From a virus, in UHGV virus genome UHGV-0276200: a DNA stretch of 34,282 nucleotides. One strand, given 5' to 3'. Shown here in pieces: positions 894-34,282 of the stretch. The notes below the pieces were generated by a model, which did no database searches, had not been told where the DNA came from, and saw only the letters and a program-made list of their open reading frames with translations. The position numbers and the translations under genes are program-made. Within the stretch, counting starts at the first letter, position 1. Each line of letters begins with the position of its first letter.

Positions 894-2099
894 TCATGGT
901 TTAATATGGGCATATACTTGAATTTCATCCATACAAGTTTCGAGTTTATAAAAGTCAGTTAAATTATAGATGTTCAAAATTTCATCATCTATGCTTCCTG
1001 TTAGCTCACGATTTTTTCTTCTTCGTAGCCTTCTGCTGAGATTCTCTCGATCGGATTGTGCAACTGATTCAGGCACGTACTCAACTGTTTTTAGGACCTG
1101 CCAAGATACAGGCAATGTGAATTTGAAAATTTTCGCTAGATTTGGACAAAATTCATTATTGGCCATCTCCTCGTAACGCACTTTTGGAGGAAGTACCACA
1201 TTTATTCCTCTGCTACCTAAGGCATTAGCAGGTAATTTTGTTGAGCGGTAGGCTATACCAACAACATTCTCATTGCTGTTCCGACTGATCCATTGCATCA
1301 AAAGATTGGGGATAATATATTCTTGTACAAAGGAAGCATTGTCATATTTTTTTAAATAATTGCATGCAATTATCAAAGGCCAAAGTGCTAAATATGAGAG
1401 TTTGGTATTGAAATCATATTTGTTCTTTCTTTTTGACTCTAATATAGATCTCTGTTTATATAAAAAATCAGGTCCTATATTTAGTACCTTTGAGTCATTA
1501 TTTTTATCGATCTTGTAGGCAGATATATATAGCTTATCAAAATCTGGCTTATCCATTTCTCTCCAGCATATATAAAGAGATGTTCCTAAATATAAACAGG
1601 GTAGACCAGCAACTGAAAATCTCTGTGCTCTAACAAAGTGACGCTGACTGAACGGAATATGAAACATATCTCTTCTTGATGTAAGTGGCGTATCAGATTT
1701 TCTAACGCGGAATAATGGTTTATCTTCATTACATAAGTCAGAAAGAGGTATGCATATATTTTCAATATGACGAGATATAGTTCGTGGCTCTAGCATACTT
1801 TCAAATGAGTCATATGCCGACTTAATATCCCCTGATAAAAAACACTCTAAACACGAGACGATTTCTTTCTGCATGATATCTACAGCTCTAAGTCTATTGC
1901 GCAAGCGTAAACTTAACCTGTTATCATTTTCCTGGATGTAATCTACTAAACAACCCCGGAATTTACTGCATTTTAGAGCGAAGTCATCTATCAAAGTAAG
2001 GTTTTTTTCAATCTCAATTGGTGGTCGAATACTTGATTTTTTTCTAATAGTGTCAAAAAGATTATTAAGTTCTTCATCGAGTTCTTGTTGAATATGCAT
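894..2099 (-). CDS. Hypothetical AT-rich cargo protein (401 aa) downstream of int; central segment resembles a RES-domain signature (tentative)
   Basis: Uninterrupted 401-codon ORF starting 9 nt after the int stop, with no obvious SD. Much lower GC than backbone. Segment FRVRKSD...QRFSVAGLPCLYLGTSLYICWRE matches the R-F-x...P-x-LYL-x-x-S...C-x-x-E pattern recalled for RES toxins such as MbcT. Confidence 0.6.
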   Translation of the reverse strand: MHIQQELDEELNNLFDTIRKKSSIRPPIEIEKNLTLIDDFALKCSKFRGCLVDYIQENDNRLSLRLRNRLRAVDIMQKEIVSCLECFLSGDIKSAYDSFESMLEPRTISRHIENICIPLSDLCNEDKPLFRVRKSDTPLTSRRDMFHIPFSQRHFVRAQRFSVAGLPCLYLGTSLYICWREMDKPDFDKLYISAYKIDKNNDSKVLNIGPDFLYKQRSILESKRKNKYDFNTKLSYLALWPLIIACNYLKKYDNASFVQEYIIPNLLMQWISRNSNENVVGIAYRSTKLPANALGSRGINVVLPPKVRYEEMANNEFCPNLAKIFKFTLPVSWQVLKTVEYVPESVAQSDRENLSRRLRRRKNRELTGSIDDEILNIYNLTDFYKLETCMDEIQVYAHIKP

Positions 2100-9124: not shown

Positions 9125-9313
9125 ATGCAGGACTATTTTTTGGAGTCTTTGAAGCTCCAGCGCATTGATTTTTTTCTTAAGCTTGTAGCGGCTAGTGAGT
9201 GTAGTGATGAAGAGAAGGGGCTGGCCCTGCAGTGGGTTTCTGAACTGACAGATGAACTCATGGCAAAAATCAGAACCCACGAATACAACCGCTCAATGGA
9301 TGTCATCAGCTGA
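9125..9313 (+). CDS. Small hypothetical protein, first gene after the LexA box (possible Tum-like antirepressor module)
   Basis: 62 aa, RBS GGAGG before the ATG. The antirepressor assignment rests on position only, by analogy with 186 tum. Confidence 0.4.
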   Translation: MQDYFLESLKLQRIDFFLKLVAASECSDEEKGLALQWVSELTDELMAKIRTHEYNRSMDVIS

Positions 9314-9323
9314 GGTGACTTTT

Positions 9324-9557
9324 ATGCGCATTGAAATAATGATCGATAAAGAGCAGAAGATTAGCCAGTCTACCCTGGACGCTCTGGAGTCCGAGCTTTA
9401 CCGCAACCTGCAACCCATCTATCCCAAGACAGCTATCCGCATCCGTAAAGGGTCGGCAAACGGCGTTGAGCTGAGTGGCTTAAAGCTTGATGAAGACAAA
9501 AAGCGGGTGATGGAAATTATGCAGCAGGTTTGGGAAGACGACAGCTGGCTGCACTAA
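9324..9557 (+). CDS. dinI: DinI-family protein
   Basis: 78 aa. MRIEIMIDK...TLDALESELYRNLQPIYP...EIMQQVWEDDSW aligns along its whole length with E. coli DinI. The track ORF 9252 is an over-extension. Confidence 0.8.
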   Translation: MRIEIMIDKEQKISQSTLDALESELYRNLQPIYPKTAIRIRKGSANGVELSGLKLDEDKKRVMEIMQQVWEDDSWLH

Positions 9558-9630
9558 GGAACGTTCCTGATGTAAGAACTTGATTCTGACGTCAGCAAGG
9601 TTGAACAACGAGAGTAGCGAGGCGTTAGCC

Positions 9631-9891
9631 ATGGGTAAAAAAGACAGTAATCACCAGATTATTTATCGGGGCCAGGTGCTGGAACGGTTTACCCCTGGCG
9701 GCTGGGTCTTCTTTCAACGCCCAAAGGAGTGTGGCGGAGGTTTTTGGTTGGGCCGCACCTATGAAGACTGCTTCTGGCTTGAGCTGGAATTCCCCGTTTC
9801 GCTATATGACGGCCTGGAGTTTTTGATGGAAGTCACCAGGGTAGAGCAGAGAAGTGATGAGGTTGACGCGAATTATTCCCTGTTTGATTAA
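9631..9891 (+). CDS. Hypothetical protein
   Basis: ATG at 9631 (MGKKDSNHQ...); no domain recognised. Confidence 0.4.
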   Translation: MGKKDSNHQIIYRGQVLERFTPGGWVFFQRPKECGGGFWLGRTYEDCFWLELEFPVSLYDGLEFLMEVTRVEQRSDEVDANYSLFD

Positions 9892-9939
9892 AAATGTATT
9901 AGCTTATAATGGAATACTATTTTTGCAGGTGGGGGCGCA

Positions 9940-10551
9940 ATGGATTTAGTCTTTAAAATTCTGGCTTCGTTGGGTGGGGTGTCTTTTGTTGCATCTGGCA
10001 TATTTGTTTGGATCGGGAAAGTTTATTTAGAAAGATATAAGTCGCGGCTAAACAAAGATATTGCTGAATTTCAATCACAACTGAGTGCAACTAATGAAAG
10101 AATAAAGGCTAAGTTAGACAATTCTGTTTATGTAACGAAAGCGTATTTTGATAAGGAGTTATCAGCATATAGTCTCATTTGGAATTCGATGTTTGAAACC
10201 AGAGAAAGCGTGCTTAAGCTGAGGCCTGCGCTGGATCATTTTGACCCCAACGAACCATTTGAAGAGAGAAAATTTAGAAGGTTGAAAGTTTTTTTCGATG
10301 CATTTAATACTTTTGTTACAAGTGTTGAGTCTAACAAACCGTTCATCTCACCAGAGGTTTATATAATCTTGGACCGTTTCCGGAAGGAATGCCTTTCAGA
10401 GTCAATATCGTTTCAGCATGGCGATCCAGAATTTGACTGGCAAAATTATTGGAAAGAGGCAGAGTTGAACCGTACAACCATCACCAAGCTTTTTGATGAG
10501 ACGTGTGATGCAATTCGAGACAGGATGCACACATTAACTGTGGTTACGTAG
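9940..10551 (+). CDS. Hypothetical membrane-anchored cargo protein (N-terminal transmembrane helix)
   Basis: 203 aa; residues about 5-26 are hydrophobic (ILASLGGVSFVASGIFVWIG), followed by a charged, helix-rich soluble region. AT-rich. Confidence 0.55.
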   Translation: MDLVFKILASLGGVSFVASGIFVWIGKVYLERYKSRLNKDIAEFQSQLSATNERIKAKLDNSVYVTKAYFDKELSAYSLIWNSMFETRESVLKLRPALDHFDPNEPFEERKFRRLKVFFDAFNTFVTSVESNKPFISPEVYIILDRFRKECLSESISFQHGDPEFDWQNYWKEAELNRTTITKLFDETCDAIRDRMHTLTVVT

Positions 10552-10642
10552 TTTTCCAAAAAGTCTCGATGCCCGCTTTGGCGATTGTGCATGTCTATGC
10601 CGCATGAATCCGCATGATCGTTTGAGGATCGTTTTAGCTGAG

Positions 10643-10669
10643 GCCCGCTAGGAATGGCGGGCTTTTGCT
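10643..10669 (+). terminator. Rho-independent terminator
   Basis: GCCCGC (10643-48), 8-nt loop, GCGGGC (10657-62), then TTTTGCTT. Confidence 0.5.
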
Positions 10670-10711
10670 TATGTCATGCAGGCGCATGAAAACCACTACA
10701 TAAAGCGGGCA

Positions 10712-10730
10712 GGCGTGGCGGGGATACGAG
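10712..10730. other. Candidate cos site (cohesive-end sequence)
   Basis: ggcgtggcgggga (10712..10724) matches the first 13 nt of the 186/P2-type 19-nt cohesive end as recalled from memory (186 GGCGTGGCGGGGAAAGCAT). Confidence 0.5.
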
Positions 10731-10840
10731 CGCGCGCTCATGGTTGAATTAATGAAATTATGGTGTTAAATAGGCTAGCTTTTTAAGTCGTGAATATTCA
10801 ATTTTTCAACTCATTTTTTTCATAGGGAGGAGTAATTGAC

Positions 10841-11539
10841 ATGGTTATGTTAGTGGATGACTGTCCACGATGTGGATCACAAAAAATAGCGTTTGATGTT
10901 AATGGGCTGAATTGCACTAGGGTTTACAATGCATTGGGCGGGGGTAAAACATACGAGTACGAGGTCTATTGTGTTTGCCGAGAGTGTCATAAAACGACAA
11001 TGTTTCTTTGCAGACCTTTAACGAAAAATAAAACTTTAGATGGCTATAATTGGGAAAGTGGAATATTCGGCTTAAAGGAAGTTGCAGAGGTTGTTAGGCC
11101 TATATCACCGGCAGACTTAGCAGTAGAGGAGCCACCAGAGTTCTTACCTGAGCATATCAATAGTGCATATGAGGAAGGGGCGAAATGTTTGGCTATAGGT
11201 TGTTATAATGCAGCAGCAACCATGTTTAGGCTTTGCCTTGATTATGCCACAAAAGGACTTCTTCCTGATGGGGAGCAAGGGCCTGCGCAAAAAATAAGGA
11301 GAAGCCTAGGGTTAAGAATGGAGTGGTTATTTGATAATCATCTACTGCCTGAAGCTTTAAGGGAACTAGCTGAATGCGTTAAAGATGACGGAAATGATGG
11401 AGCGCATGAAGGTATTTTGGATAAAGCTGCTGCTGAGGATCTTGAAGATTTTACCTATCTTTTTTTAGAACGGCTTTACACTGAACCTCAACGCCTTATC
11501 GAAGCCAAGACAAGGCGTGAACAAAGAAGAAACAAATAA
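10841..11539 (+). CDS. Hypothetical cargo protein: N-terminal zinc ribbon plus C-terminal DUF4145-like domain
   Basis: 232 aa; CPRCGS...CVCRECHK gives four Cys. C-terminal helical region with GNDGAHEG and the following acidic helix resembles the DUF4145 signature as recalled. Strong RBS GGGAGGAG. About 42% GC. Lies between cos and the Q stop. Confidence 0.6.
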   Translation: MVMLVDDCPRCGSQKIAFDVNGLNCTRVYNALGGGKTYEYEVYCVCRECHKTTMFLCRPLTKNKTLDGYNWESGIFGLKEVAEVVRPISPADLAVEEPPEFLPEHINSAYEEGAKCLAIGCYNAAATMFRLCLDYATKGLLPDGEQGPAQKIRRSLGLRMEWLFDNHLLPEALRELAECVKDDGNDGAHEGILDKAAAEDLEDFTYLFLERLYTEPQRLIEAKTRREQRRNK

Positions 11540-11547
11540 GTTCGGAA

Positions 11548-12585
11548 TTATTCTTCTGAAAGAATATAGGGCGTAAATTTAATCACTTCTTCGCCCAGCC
11601 AGTCGTTCAGCTCTTGTAGCCTTTTTTGCAAGGGCGTTAATTCATTACGTACAAATACGCGACTAGCCTTCTCCACATCCCCAAACCCTCCAACATTATT
11701 AGGCATAATCCCCATCATTTGCGGCGGCACGCGGTGCGCAGCCATCATGTCGTCGCGGCTGACATTTTTGATATTCAAAAACTCATCCTTCGCCGCGACT
11801 TCTGACAATGGGATGATCTGAAGCCCGTCTTTTTTGCCGTTAGGCGAGTACATAAACAGGTTGCGGAAGTTGCCTGGACCTTTGGCGCTTTTCATCGCAT
11901 TGCGGAGGTTGTTCACATCCTCCTGGTTTTGCGCGGCATCGGTCATGTACATGATAAAGCCCGCATGACTGCCGTTAATGTAATACTTGCGACGGAACAG
12001 CGTGGCGGACTCGTTGAGCAGGGCTGACGGAATGGCAGAAAGATAACCGGGCAGGCCGTAGATCTCCTGATTAATATCCGGTTCCATCAGATGAAAAATG
12101 CTGCCTTTCGTGAACTGATACGGCTGGGTTGTCATACCGTATTGCACAAACCAGTAGGTATCCAGGTCTAACCCGCGTCGGGTGTATTTTGCCAGTGCAG
12201 GCTCAAGGGCGATAACTTCACCGAAGCGGTTCGTGCGTTTCTCCAGGTAGGCGTTACCAAAAACCAGATAGTCCTGCACAAAACGCGAAAAAGCCTGCTG
12301 GCTGAGCAGCGGGTGAGGGATGTAGGTGCTGGTCAGAATGTTGCACTTTACTGCAATCGGGGAACTATGATGCACGGCAGCGCGGAAGGTGCGCGCCAGT
12401 CCGTCAAAGCTGACGGGCGGCTCATACCAGCGGTCCATCTGTACGCATTCCACATAATCCAGCAGTTCTCGGCGGTCCAGAACAGGAACGGGATCGCCGA
12501 AGCTGAATGCTTCGGCTGTAGTTTGACTTTTAAGCTGGATCTGTTTCGTCGCCGCAGCGCGGTTCTTCTTACTCTTTCCCATCAA
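11548..12585 (-). CDS. Q: Portal protein (P2 gpQ family)
   Basis: 345 aa (P2 Q is about 344), directly downstream of and overlapping the terminase gene. Confidence 0.85.
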   Translation of the reverse strand: MMGKSKKNRAAATKQIQLKSQTTAEAFSFGDPVPVLDRRELLDYVECVQMDRWYEPPVSFDGLARTFRAAVHHSSPIAVKCNILTSTYIPHPLLSQQAFSRFVQDYLVFGNAYLEKRTNRFGEVIALEPALAKYTRRGLDLDTYWFVQYGMTTQPYQFTKGSIFHLMEPDINQEIYGLPGYLSAIPSALLNESATLFRRKYYINGSHAGFIMYMTDAAQNQEDVNNLRNAMKSAKGPGNFRNLFMYSPNGKKDGLQIIPLSEVAAKDEFLNIKNVSRDDMMAAHRVPPQMMGIMPNNVGGFGDVEKASRVFVRNELTPLQKRLQELNDWLGEEVIKFTPYILSEE

Positions 12586-19933: not shown

Positions 19934-20464
19934 TTACGCTCTTAATAAACTTAAATAACTTTTTATGCTTTGGCAAAAAGGGAAAAGGTCTATTTTAATT
20001 TTCCAGTTTTTTTTGTTTTGAACCCCAGAAGCAATAATAGAACCGTCCCAATATTTTATTCCATTTTTGCCGGTCTTTTTTGTTAACTCAAAACTTAATG
20101 CGTGAATAATTTTATTGCAGCATTCGCGTATAGAATCTTTAACATGACCATCTATAACAAAAAGTATATTTTCATGTTCTTCAAATGCTTCTTTCTCAGG
20201 TGAGTAATCTGGGTTCCACTCATGTTCACTAGTGTCTTGGAGAATTCGTAGTTTTGTACAAAGGCTAATAAGATTGTTGCTAATGGTATATTCCAACCAT
20301 CCGTTGTACGATAACTCCTCCATTTCAAATTCAGTTACTATAGAACCATCATATACTTTCTGTGTGGAATATATACGCTGTAAATAAAATTCAGATGAAC
20401 AGCATAATTGCTCAATTATTCTTGCGTGTTCTTCTATAGCGTAATAATCAATTGGATGGCTCAT
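19934..20464 (-). CDS. Hypothetical AT-rich moron protein between S and V
   Basis: Antisense to the late operon. ATG at 20464 (MSHPIDYY...) preceded by a GAAAGG RBS. Stop lies 5 bp from the S stop. No domain recognised. Confidence 0.5.
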   Translation of the reverse strand: MSHPIDYYAIEEHARIIEQLCCSSEFYLQRIYSTQKVYDGSIVTEFEMEELSYNGWLEYTISNNLISLCTKLRILQDTSEHEWNPDYSPEKEAFEEHENILFVIDGHVKDSIRECCNKIIHALSFELTKKTGKNGIKYWDGSIIASGVQNKKNWKIKIDLFPFCQSIKSYLSLLRA

Positions 20465-33472: not shown

Positions 33473-33496
33473 AACCTGCTACGGCAGGTTTTTATT
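33473..33496. terminator. Bidirectional terminator hairpin between convergent ogr and the WYL-BRCT gene
   Basis: AACCTGC-TACG-GCAGGTT (7-bp stem) followed by TTTATT on the plus strand; placed just after both stop codons. Confidence 0.5.
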
Positions 33497-33974
33497 CATC
33501 TGGGATCTCACCCGTTTCAAGAAAATGTATAAAGCCAGGCTCATCTATGATGATAGTGCCTTTCATCCTGGCTGCCGATACTTTTGATGGGCCTGCATTG
33601 TAACCGCAACAGAGCATCTGAAGGTTTTGGGTTACAGATGTTCTTACCGTTAATCCTTGTTCATTCGCCTTATCAACCAACCTTTCTTTATCTGCTTTCT
33701 TAAATCCGGTGAAACACACATCGAATGTATTTTTTTTCGGACCTGACTGCTTAGTGAGATGTGAGTAGTTTTCGGGGAGGAATGACGCGCATTCCTGAAT
33801 GGCTTGTTCTTGTGAATCGTATTGTTTAAGAATGCGGTCTTTTCGGAAGGTTTTTATTCGATCGGTGTTCTTACAAATGCCCTGTATGTGATTTTCGCTA
33901 TAACTGATGCTCTGTATTGAGTGAACACCGATACGACCATTTGCATTGATGTAAACAAAGTGAAGTTCTTCCAT
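33492..33974 (-). CDS. Hypothetical cargo protein: N-terminal WYL-like domain fused to C-terminal BRCT domain
   Basis: 160 aa. N-terminus YINANGRIGVHSIQSISYSENHIQGICKNTDRIKTFRKDRI fits the WYL pattern (...R.FR.DRI). C-terminus VCFTGF...KERLVDKANEQGLTVRTSVTQNLQMLCCGYNAGPSKVSAARMKGTIIIDEPGF aligns with the BRCT domain of NAD-dependent ligase LigA. AGAGG RBS; about 42% GC. Confidence 0.6.
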   Translation of the reverse strand: MEELHFVYINANGRIGVHSIQSISYSENHIQGICKNTDRIKTFRKDRILKQYDSQEQAIQECASFLPENYSHLTKQSGPKKNTFDVCFTGFKKADKERLVDKANEQGLTVRTSVTQNLQMLCCGYNAGPSKVSAARMKGTIIIDEPGFIHFLETGEIPDE

Positions 33975-34089: not shown

Positions 34090-34097
34090 GATTTATT

Positions 34098-34142
34098 TGG
34101 TGGAGCTGGCGGGAGTTGAACCCGCGTCCGAAATTCCTACAT
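34098..34142. repeat. attR core: 45-bp direct repeat (3' end of intact ssrA)
   Basis: Identical to 730..774. Confidence 0.85.
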
Positions 34143-34282
34143 CCTCGGTACTACATGCTTAGTCAGTCTTTACATTCGCTTGCCAGCTGCGGACGGACAC
34201 GCCACTAACAAACTAGCCTGATTAAGTTTTAACGCTTCAACCCCAGGCAGGGCTTCCACGCGATCTCTTTTGGGTTTGACCT
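34098..34282 (-). ncRNA. ssrA: tmRNA (ssrA), 3' portion; the gene continues beyond the window end
   Basis: Reverse complement matches the enterobacterial ssrA sequence from ...AGGTCAAACCCAAAAGAGATCGCGTGGAAGCCCTGCCTGGGG... to the 3' ...GGGTTCAACTCCCGCCAGCTCCACCA. Confidence 0.9.

Follow-up and report, generated by a model that had tools for sequence, protein, structure and literature searches.

The window analysed here, a stretch of 34,282 nucleotides, is an integrated P2-like prophage: from 729 to 34142 it matches the entire genome of Escherichia phage Cartapus (Peduoviridae, Elveevirus) at 100% identity, and Cartapus is prophage 4 of adherent-invasive E. coli LF82. Direct att repeats of 46 bp (729-774 and 34097-34142), equal to the 3' end of ssrA, bound the prophage, and Rfam recognised the 3' half of tmRNA on the right flank (34098-34282, minus strand, 124.8 bits), cut by the window end. 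An ARAGORN scan of the window did not find tmRNA, the gene being truncated there. From the tmRNA 3' half on the flank it follows that Cartapus is integrated in ssrA. The gene under study, CARTA_1 (synonyms LF82_788, LF82_RS13705, WP_000245245.1 and Cartapus gp01; annotated 'DUF4145 domain-containing protein'), sits between the packaging site cos and the portal gene Q, just as the preliminary description of this DNA had placed it (Table 1), and the Q stop at 11548 is only 8 nt past its own. The two stops (11537-11550) are convergent without a terminator between them, and lysogen transcription of CARTA_1 should read antisense into Q.

Table 1. Features in and around CARTA_1 (positions are those of the window; aa, amino acids)
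Feature	Position	Strand	Basis or remark
Terminator-like hairpin, then UUUUGCUU (U-tract)	10636-10669	+	RNA folding; directly upstream of cos
cos (packaging/cohesive-end region, P2-like)	10680-10738		Putative cos of Cartapus record, 1-59
AT-rich upstream region, 29% GC	10739-10840	+	Sequence and GC
CARTA_1 CDS, 232 aa, ATG start	10841-11539	+	Zinc-ribbon plus DUF4145/HEPN protein
N-terminal zinc-ribbon sensor domain, aa 1-89	10841-11107	+	Invariant Cys, structure model
Codon of C8	10862-10864	+	Zinc ribbon
Codon of C11	10871-10873	+	Zinc ribbon
Codon of C46	10976-10978	+	Zinc ribbon
Codon of C49	10985-10987	+	Zinc ribbon
Linker, aa 90-103, PADLAVEEPPEFLP	11108-11149	+	BLASTP and hhalign to RAZR linker
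DUF4145/HEPN helical nuclease domain (predicted), aa 104-215	11150-11485	+	
Putative active-site motif K181-D-D-G-N-D-G-A-H189	11381-11407	+	Equivalent to RAZR R146-I-V-G-N-Q-A-V-H154
Portal gene Q	11548-12585	-	Pfam Phage_portal E = 3.6e-18 and annotation; convergent with CARTA_1

The cos region was placed by the Cartapus annotation together with conservation, the segment being 96-98% identical across five related phages; a search for the 19-nt cohesive end of P2 gave no match at up to 3 mismatches. The hairpin that precedes cos is unusually stable (dG -22.9 kcal/mol, z = -3.87, with 0 of 200 shuffles as stable) and is not in the list returned by a simple terminator scan; it would stop transcription arriving from the upstream cargo gene CARTA_47. 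Between cos and the ATG, a Shine-Dalgarno sequence, GGGAGGAG, occupies 10825-10832, 8 nt upstream of CARTA_1, and a weak promoter candidate can be picked out by eye (TTGAAT at 10744-10749, 16 nt, TTAAAT at 10766-10771; 8 of 12 positions matched) that lies below the threshold of a sigma-70 consensus scan, which reported no promoter upstream of CARTA_1 on the plus strand. The low GC of the gene noted at the outset is borne out, with 41.8% (GC3 31.8%) versus 51.0% for the prophage and a GC3 of 61% for Q. That the reading frame might be spurious was considered and rejected, as conservation, expression and a confident fold are all against it. An exhaustive search puts the size of the family at 927 representative clusters (E <= 1e-3).

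Both halves of the protein are what they had seemed to be from the bare sequence. The N-terminal four-Cys zinc ribbon is indicated by residues C8, C11, C46 and C49, which are invariant across 40 homologues and which an AlphaFold model (pLDDT 96) places at two beta-hairpin knuckles (hairpins 3-6/16-30 and 36-46/52-59); zinc-ribbon profile matches to L33 and RPA12 were weak and non-significant. The resemblance of the C-terminus to DUF4145 is borne out by Pfam PF13643, which matches residues 114-203 above its cutoff (E = 4.5e-7, 30.3 bits versus 23.1). Structure prediction, proposed earlier as a check, returned a confident HEPN fold for this part when the model was built from an alignment of representative-search proteins, whereas a single-sequence model reached only pLDDT 39 and was unusable. 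Conservation is uneven along the protein, mean pairwise identity in the family being 34% in the sensor domain, its most variable region, versus 67% in HEPN; the same comparison in RAZR gives 46% for the sensor versus 86% for the nuclease.

RAZR is the named system that has this layout, and the architecture, which could not be placed at first, can now be assigned: by PADLOC, hhalign and PDB searches CARTA_1 is a remote homologue of it. Originally PD-T7-4, it was described as 'Zn finger-HEPN', a single-gene defence of E. coli UMB1727 whose gene overlaps an integrase gene (Vassallo et al. 2022), and it has since been renamed RAZR, for ring-activated zinc-finger RNase (PDB 9Y9C/9Y6U; Zhang et al. 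Nature 2026). RAZR begins with a Cys4 zinc ribbon, followed by a linker (66-79) described as important and, at the C-terminus, by a DUF4145 domain classed as a divergent HEPN; defence requires R146 and H154, being lost in R146A as well as in H154A, and D179, D180 and R184 are residues of the dimer-dimer/oligomer interface (Zhang et al. 2026). Its activators are the portal proteins of T7, T3 and SECphi18 and the Erf-like Gp77 ring of SECphi27, and 24 RAZR copies surround such phage protein rings (~170 Å), which leads to non-specific ssRNA cleavage and abortive infection (Zhang et al. 2026). The zinc-finger domain is both the specificity determinant and the most variable region, and RAZR alone, even when overproduced, is non-toxic (Zhang et al. 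2026).

Several searches connect CARTA_1 to this protein. A PADLOC profile search returned a single match for CARTA_1, PD-T7-4 (E = 1.2e-6), and 59 of 76 family members match the same model (best 3.4e-11), some of them in alignments that run from the first CxxC to the HEPN motif (for P0034 and P0096 the alignment begins with the first CxxC). With a profile of 76 sequences taken from the exhaustive family search, hhalign against the RAZR family gave 96.5% probability (E = 7.1e-10, 114 columns), superseding the 5.5% obtained with a shallow 40-sequence profile, and RAZR (9Y9C) was the sole significant PDB sequence match of the deeper profile (E = 1.6e-4). PDB searches with the single sequence, with a shallow profile or with the Stx-phage homologue as query gave no match. 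As a RAZR reference we used an ORF of 219 aa that was located in viral contigs by means of the published primer for cloning PD-T7-4 (Vassallo Table S8) and that overlaps an integrase gene; this ORF reaches 329 bits with the PD-T7-4 model and matches 9Y9C, which carries the published AGN68-70, R146 and H154. BLASTP of CARTA_1 against RAZR shows 26% identity over 126 aa, that is the linker and HEPN (E = 0.001 for the pair), and pairs K181 with R146 and H189 with H154. In both BLASTP and hhalign the CARTA_1 linker is aligned with RAZR linker 66-79, PAAGNVELPNPDMP, and the zinc-finger domains align at the Cys knuckles only.

The two proteins share a single-gene format of about 220-230 aa, an N-terminal Cys4 ribbon whose two CxxC knuckles are separated by 30-35 residues and, towards the C-terminus, a DUF4145/HEPN domain containing x-x2-G-N-x3-H; their Pro-rich linkers are similar in sequence (P-A-x3-V-E-x-P-x-P-D/E-...-P-E), that of RAZR being packed on the HEPN helices. 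Common to both are also a variable sensor joined to a conserved nuclease domain and carriage on mobile elements. They differ in that identity is about 22-26% and confined to linker and HEPN, in that the sensor domain of CARTA_1 exceeds that of RAZR by about 24 residues and can be aligned with it at the Cys knuckles only, and in location, since CARTA_1 occupies the cos-Q slot of a P2-like phage whereas RAZR overlaps an integrase gene. The RAZR interface residues D179, D180 and R184 are not conserved either: RAZR T183-R184-P185 aligns with T214-E215-P216, and going by the alignment the invariant R211 and E215 of CARTA_1 could make a salt bridge equivalent to that of RAZR. Given that CARTA_1 scores 26 bits on the PD-T7-4 model versus 329 for the genuine RAZR homologue, it falls into a separate subfamily, and on these sequence comparisons we conclude that CARTA_1 is best seen as a divergent member of the RAZR superfamily, distinct from RAZR proper. 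As to the RAZR locus itself, two viral contigs, L005 (9622-10230, minus strand) and L006 (3343-4002, minus strand), have a common integrase and both PD-T7-4 primer sites; one has RAZR and the other an unrelated 202-aa protein with R107-x4-H112 (HEPN-like) that PADLOC does not match. With such unlike cargo at common integrase and primer sites, the integrase-adjacent site of RAZR is a cassette-exchange slot.

The CARTA_1 branch also differs in its active site. The spacing x-x2-G-N-x3-H is the same as in RAZR, but the catalytic dyad R-x7-H of RAZR is not found: H189 is kept, and Arg146 is replaced by an invariant Lys181. Nor does K-x7-H conform to the canonical HEPN R-x4-6-H, from which RAZR, with its R-x7-H, departs too and is called a divergent HEPN. 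At the first motif position Lys is present in 118 of 120 close clusters and Arg in 120 of 120 RAZR clusters, while among 146 more distant representatives Arg is commonest (67), followed by Lys (47), with R-E-D-G-N-D-G-A-H as the commonest form. Q, H and T also occur there in some relatives, so that some lineages may have an altered catalysis or none. These substitutions, along with the loss of defence in RAZR R146A and the label 'DNA binding protein' of the PHROG family to which CARTA_1 belongs (phrog_1305), could be taken to mean that the protein has kept a RAZR-like fold without RNase activity, and serves as a binding or regulatory protein or as a sensor without nuclease output. To our minds this is improbable. 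In the close clade (40 homologues) K181, N185 and H189 are invariant, which speaks for a site under selection, Lys is positively charged as Arg is, and the PHROG label is a bare annotation; a fast-evolving sensor and a hotspot position, moreover, fit defence.

That position deserves attention in its own right. In P2 itself the Q stop is near cos, and old and tin lie on the other (A) side of cos. The initial expectation that Q normally lies close to cos fails, however, in the Fels-2/Cartapus clade, where each of five relatives examined has cargo between cos and Q, so that a filled gap is the norm there. Comparison of the five, in line with what had been suggested as a check, revealed a different gene or gene pair in each next to conserved cos and Q: Hypoth_Ymh/HEPN, Abi-alpha/AIPR, TIR, Fels-2 STM2723.1 and an ATPase + RloB pair. 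The interval between gpA and gpQ around cos is the defence hotspot of P2 phages (Rousset 2022; Vassallo 2022), as the first description had it, and CARTA_1 lies inside it. Compared with the P2 genes old and tin and with the hotspot systems of Rousset and Vassallo, CARTA_1 shares the gpA-gpQ hotspot and the logic of prophage-borne exclusion, yet the proteins are unrelated and Cartapus has cargo on both sides of cos. The Hypoth_Ymh protein that vB_EcoM-813R9 carries in the same slot, and likewise prophage HEPN sensors such as HepS, are of other HEPN families and architectures without a zinc ribbon.

Among 5426 complete E. coli genomes, 46 have CARTA_1, each time as one chromosomal copy; the cos segment has a match in 1252, and about 3-4% of these carry CARTA_1. 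With so few cos-bearing genomes carrying it and unrelated genes filling the slot, CARTA_1 is dispensable for packaging, and its low GC and rarity mark it as cargo. A 74%-identical homologue resides in the same slot of another P2-like phage (in a cluster named Citrobacter freundii) whose upstream cargo differs, and distant homologues lie beside an IS element, beside a Mu-like Mor gene, at a prophage edge and in Stx (immunity region), Burkholderia and Gordonia phages. No partner gene is conserved in any context examined, and CARTA_1 is therefore a self-contained module. In Gordonia phage Meyran, an actinophage, gene 1 (L004:94-783, plus strand), which opens the genome just ahead of the small terminase gene, encodes a 27%-identical homologue; it and CARTA_1 are both adjacent to packaging sites, in unrelated phages.

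Might CARTA_1 then serve the phage, as an accessory of cos or portal, or as a RAZR mimic, decoy or dominant-negative, that covers the portal of Cartapus itself or poisons the RAZR oligomers of the host and so lets the phage evade RAZR-type immunity? Its place next to cos and convergent with Q, the setting of the Meyran gene, the binding of RAZR to portals and a Lys-for-Arg exchange that could weaken catalysis can all be read in this way. Sister phages with near-identical cos and Q, however, fill the slot with unrelated defence-type genes, the share of cos-bearing E. coli genomes that have CARTA_1 is small, homologues are also found outside packaging modules (IS elements, Mor, Stx-phage immunity regions) and CARTA_1 is on in the lysogen while Q is silent (see below), all of which leaves us with little belief in a phage-serving role.

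For expression we relied on a published LF82 RNA-seq table with values as log2(fpkm+5), in which MB6 denotes bacteria inside THP1 macrophages 6 h post-infection. CARTA_1 reads 4.65/4.71 in LB stationary phase, 7.0-7.6 in B1/B6 and 9.2-9.6 in MB1/MB6, and Q (2.5-3.1) and gpA (2.4-2.9) are floor-level genes; transcription of CARTA_1 with Q and gpA silent therefore amounts to autonomous expression in the lysogen. Thus, of the earlier proposal that the gene is separately promoted, the separateness stands, by virtue of this expression and of the hairpin before cos, whereas a consensus promoter did not emerge from the plus-strand scan. In LB, CARTA_1 is about 4-fold above the prophage background, and its absence from the LF82 authors' list of morons is due to their cutoff of 5-fold above background. 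From LB to macrophages its transcription goes up about 30-fold. In macrophages CARTA_44, DinI, CARTA_46 and CARTA_47 (9125-10551) as well as CARTA_1 all reach log2 7.5-11, with the upstream gpA and the late genes at floor; this joint rise marks the cos-proximal cargo block as a separately regulated, stress-responsive unit. An addiction or stress module, in which CARTA_1 would be a HEPN toxin triggered by host stress (e.g. inside macrophages) rather than by phage, would agree with this rise and with the structure matches of the model, which include HEPN toxins of toxin-antitoxin systems (5YEP, 7AE2), but is the least probable reading to us, given that neither an MNT-type nor any other antitoxin gene adjoins CARTA_1, that neighbours are not conserved across the contexts examined, that overproduced RAZR alone is non-toxic and that induction is not specific to CARTA_1, as DinI and CARTA_44 also rise.

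Some further genes of Cartapus are recorded here for their own sake. CARTA_47 (LF82_789; 9940-10551, plus strand), on the opposite side of cos, encodes 203 aa with a hydrophobic N-terminal segment at 38.6% GC; its sole family match is phrog_26391 (unknown function), Pfam and PADLOC giving nothing significant. It is listed as a moron 7-fold above background (LF82 paper), reaches log2 10.5 in macrophages (LF82 RNA-seq) and is replaced by different genes in sister phages; we regard it as a candidate for defence or exclusion. Between ogr and attR, a 160-aa protein (33492-33974, minus strand) annotated 'putative exonuclease' is the top-expressed Cartapus moron (15-fold). Profile searches gave no support to the exonuclease label; they returned a sub-threshold BRCT match (E = 9e-4) and, for the C-terminal part, PDC-S48 in PADLOC (E = 1.7e-7). 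Beside the integrase, a 401-aa protein (894-2099, minus strand) with the annotation 'putative RES protein, NAD+ binding domain' has no Pfam or PADLOC match at E <= 0.01; the integrase-att position that it occupies is a minor P2 defence hotspot (2026 preprint). Finally, gp14 (19934-20464, minus strand; 176 aa) sits amid the tail/baseplate operon, though on the other strand, has modest lysogen expression (log2 5-6) and is matched by neither Pfam nor PADLOC; its position may be another moron slot.

Taken together, profile, fold, context and expression support the view, put forward in the preliminary description, of CARTA_1 as a candidate anti-phage defence cargo gene acquired horizontally, and we think it probable, by analogy with RAZR, that CARTA_1 is a single-protein abortive-infection defence of the RAZR kind and an exchangeable piece of Cartapus cargo. 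A non-catalytic binder, a phage-serving protein and an addiction toxin are each less likely than defence, because the slot is dispensable and defence-filled in sister phages, because the active site is under selection and because there is no antitoxin. If CARTA_1 works as RAZR does, its protein would be an inactive oligomer in the uninfected lysogen until a competing phage infects and the fast-evolving zinc ribbon binds a multimeric phage protein, which for RAZR is a portal or an Erf-like ring. Binding would shift the HEPN pairs so that H189, N185 and K181 form a composite active site, which would cut RNA non-specifically, so that translation would stop and the invader be blocked at the cost of the cell. 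Under such a scheme the portal of Cartapus itself, encoded next door, must not act as a trigger. The trigger of CARTA_1 probably differs from that of RAZR, given a sensor domain of greater size that resists alignment except at the Cys knuckles. A bolder version, which we put forward as speculation and hold to be rather unlikely, sees the Lys181 clade as a functionally distinct RAZR branch, carried by P2-like phages, in which the bigger ribbon senses another multimeric phage assembly, possibly the portals of competing temperate phages, P2-like or other, the own portal has co-evolved to be invisible and the Arg-to-Lys exchange tunes catalysis without abolishing it.

How much of this is already known depends in part on DS-38, a validated E. 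coli defence system with HEPN and zinc-finger domains, whose predicted structure is described as aligning with PD-T7-4 in the HEPN domain only (DefensePredictor, bioRxiv 10.1101/2025.01.08.631726). A HEPN-only relation to PD-T7-4 is what CARTA_1 has as well, a likeness that holds at the level of the published description. DS-38 may be a member of the CARTA_1 family, in which case defence by this family has already been shown, or may represent a third family. None of the genomes listed with CARTA_1 is obviously named as an ECOR strain. We identified no reported phenotype for CARTA_1 or its subfamily, with the caveat that DS-38 may be of the same family. RAZR/PD-T7-4 and the cargo of the P2 hotspot are already known, and CARTA_1, with its Lys181 and its cos-Q position, is a divergent variant.

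RAZR is a recent case of bacterial immunity that is activated by assembly around a phage protein ring, and what is described here is a divergent sister family of considerable size, 927 representative clusters, which has the RAZR layout and is found in the best-known phage defence hotspot beside a portal gene. With no more than 26 bits on the PD-T7-4 model, CARTA_1 would probably go unlabelled by current annotation tools. The family raises the questions of what a different zinc-ribbon sensor targets, of whether Lys can stand in for the catalytic Arg in a DUF4145 HEPN domain and of how a phage that builds a portal avoids triggering a ring-sensing RNase that it expresses. Should the Lys181 clade indeed be a branch of its own with a portal made invisible to it, CARTA_1 and the portal would form a natural pair showing how a ring-sensing immune protein tells self from non-self. 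LF82 is a model Crohn's-associated E. coli in phage-therapy work, and the gene may matter there because CARTA_1 is strongly transcribed inside macrophages.
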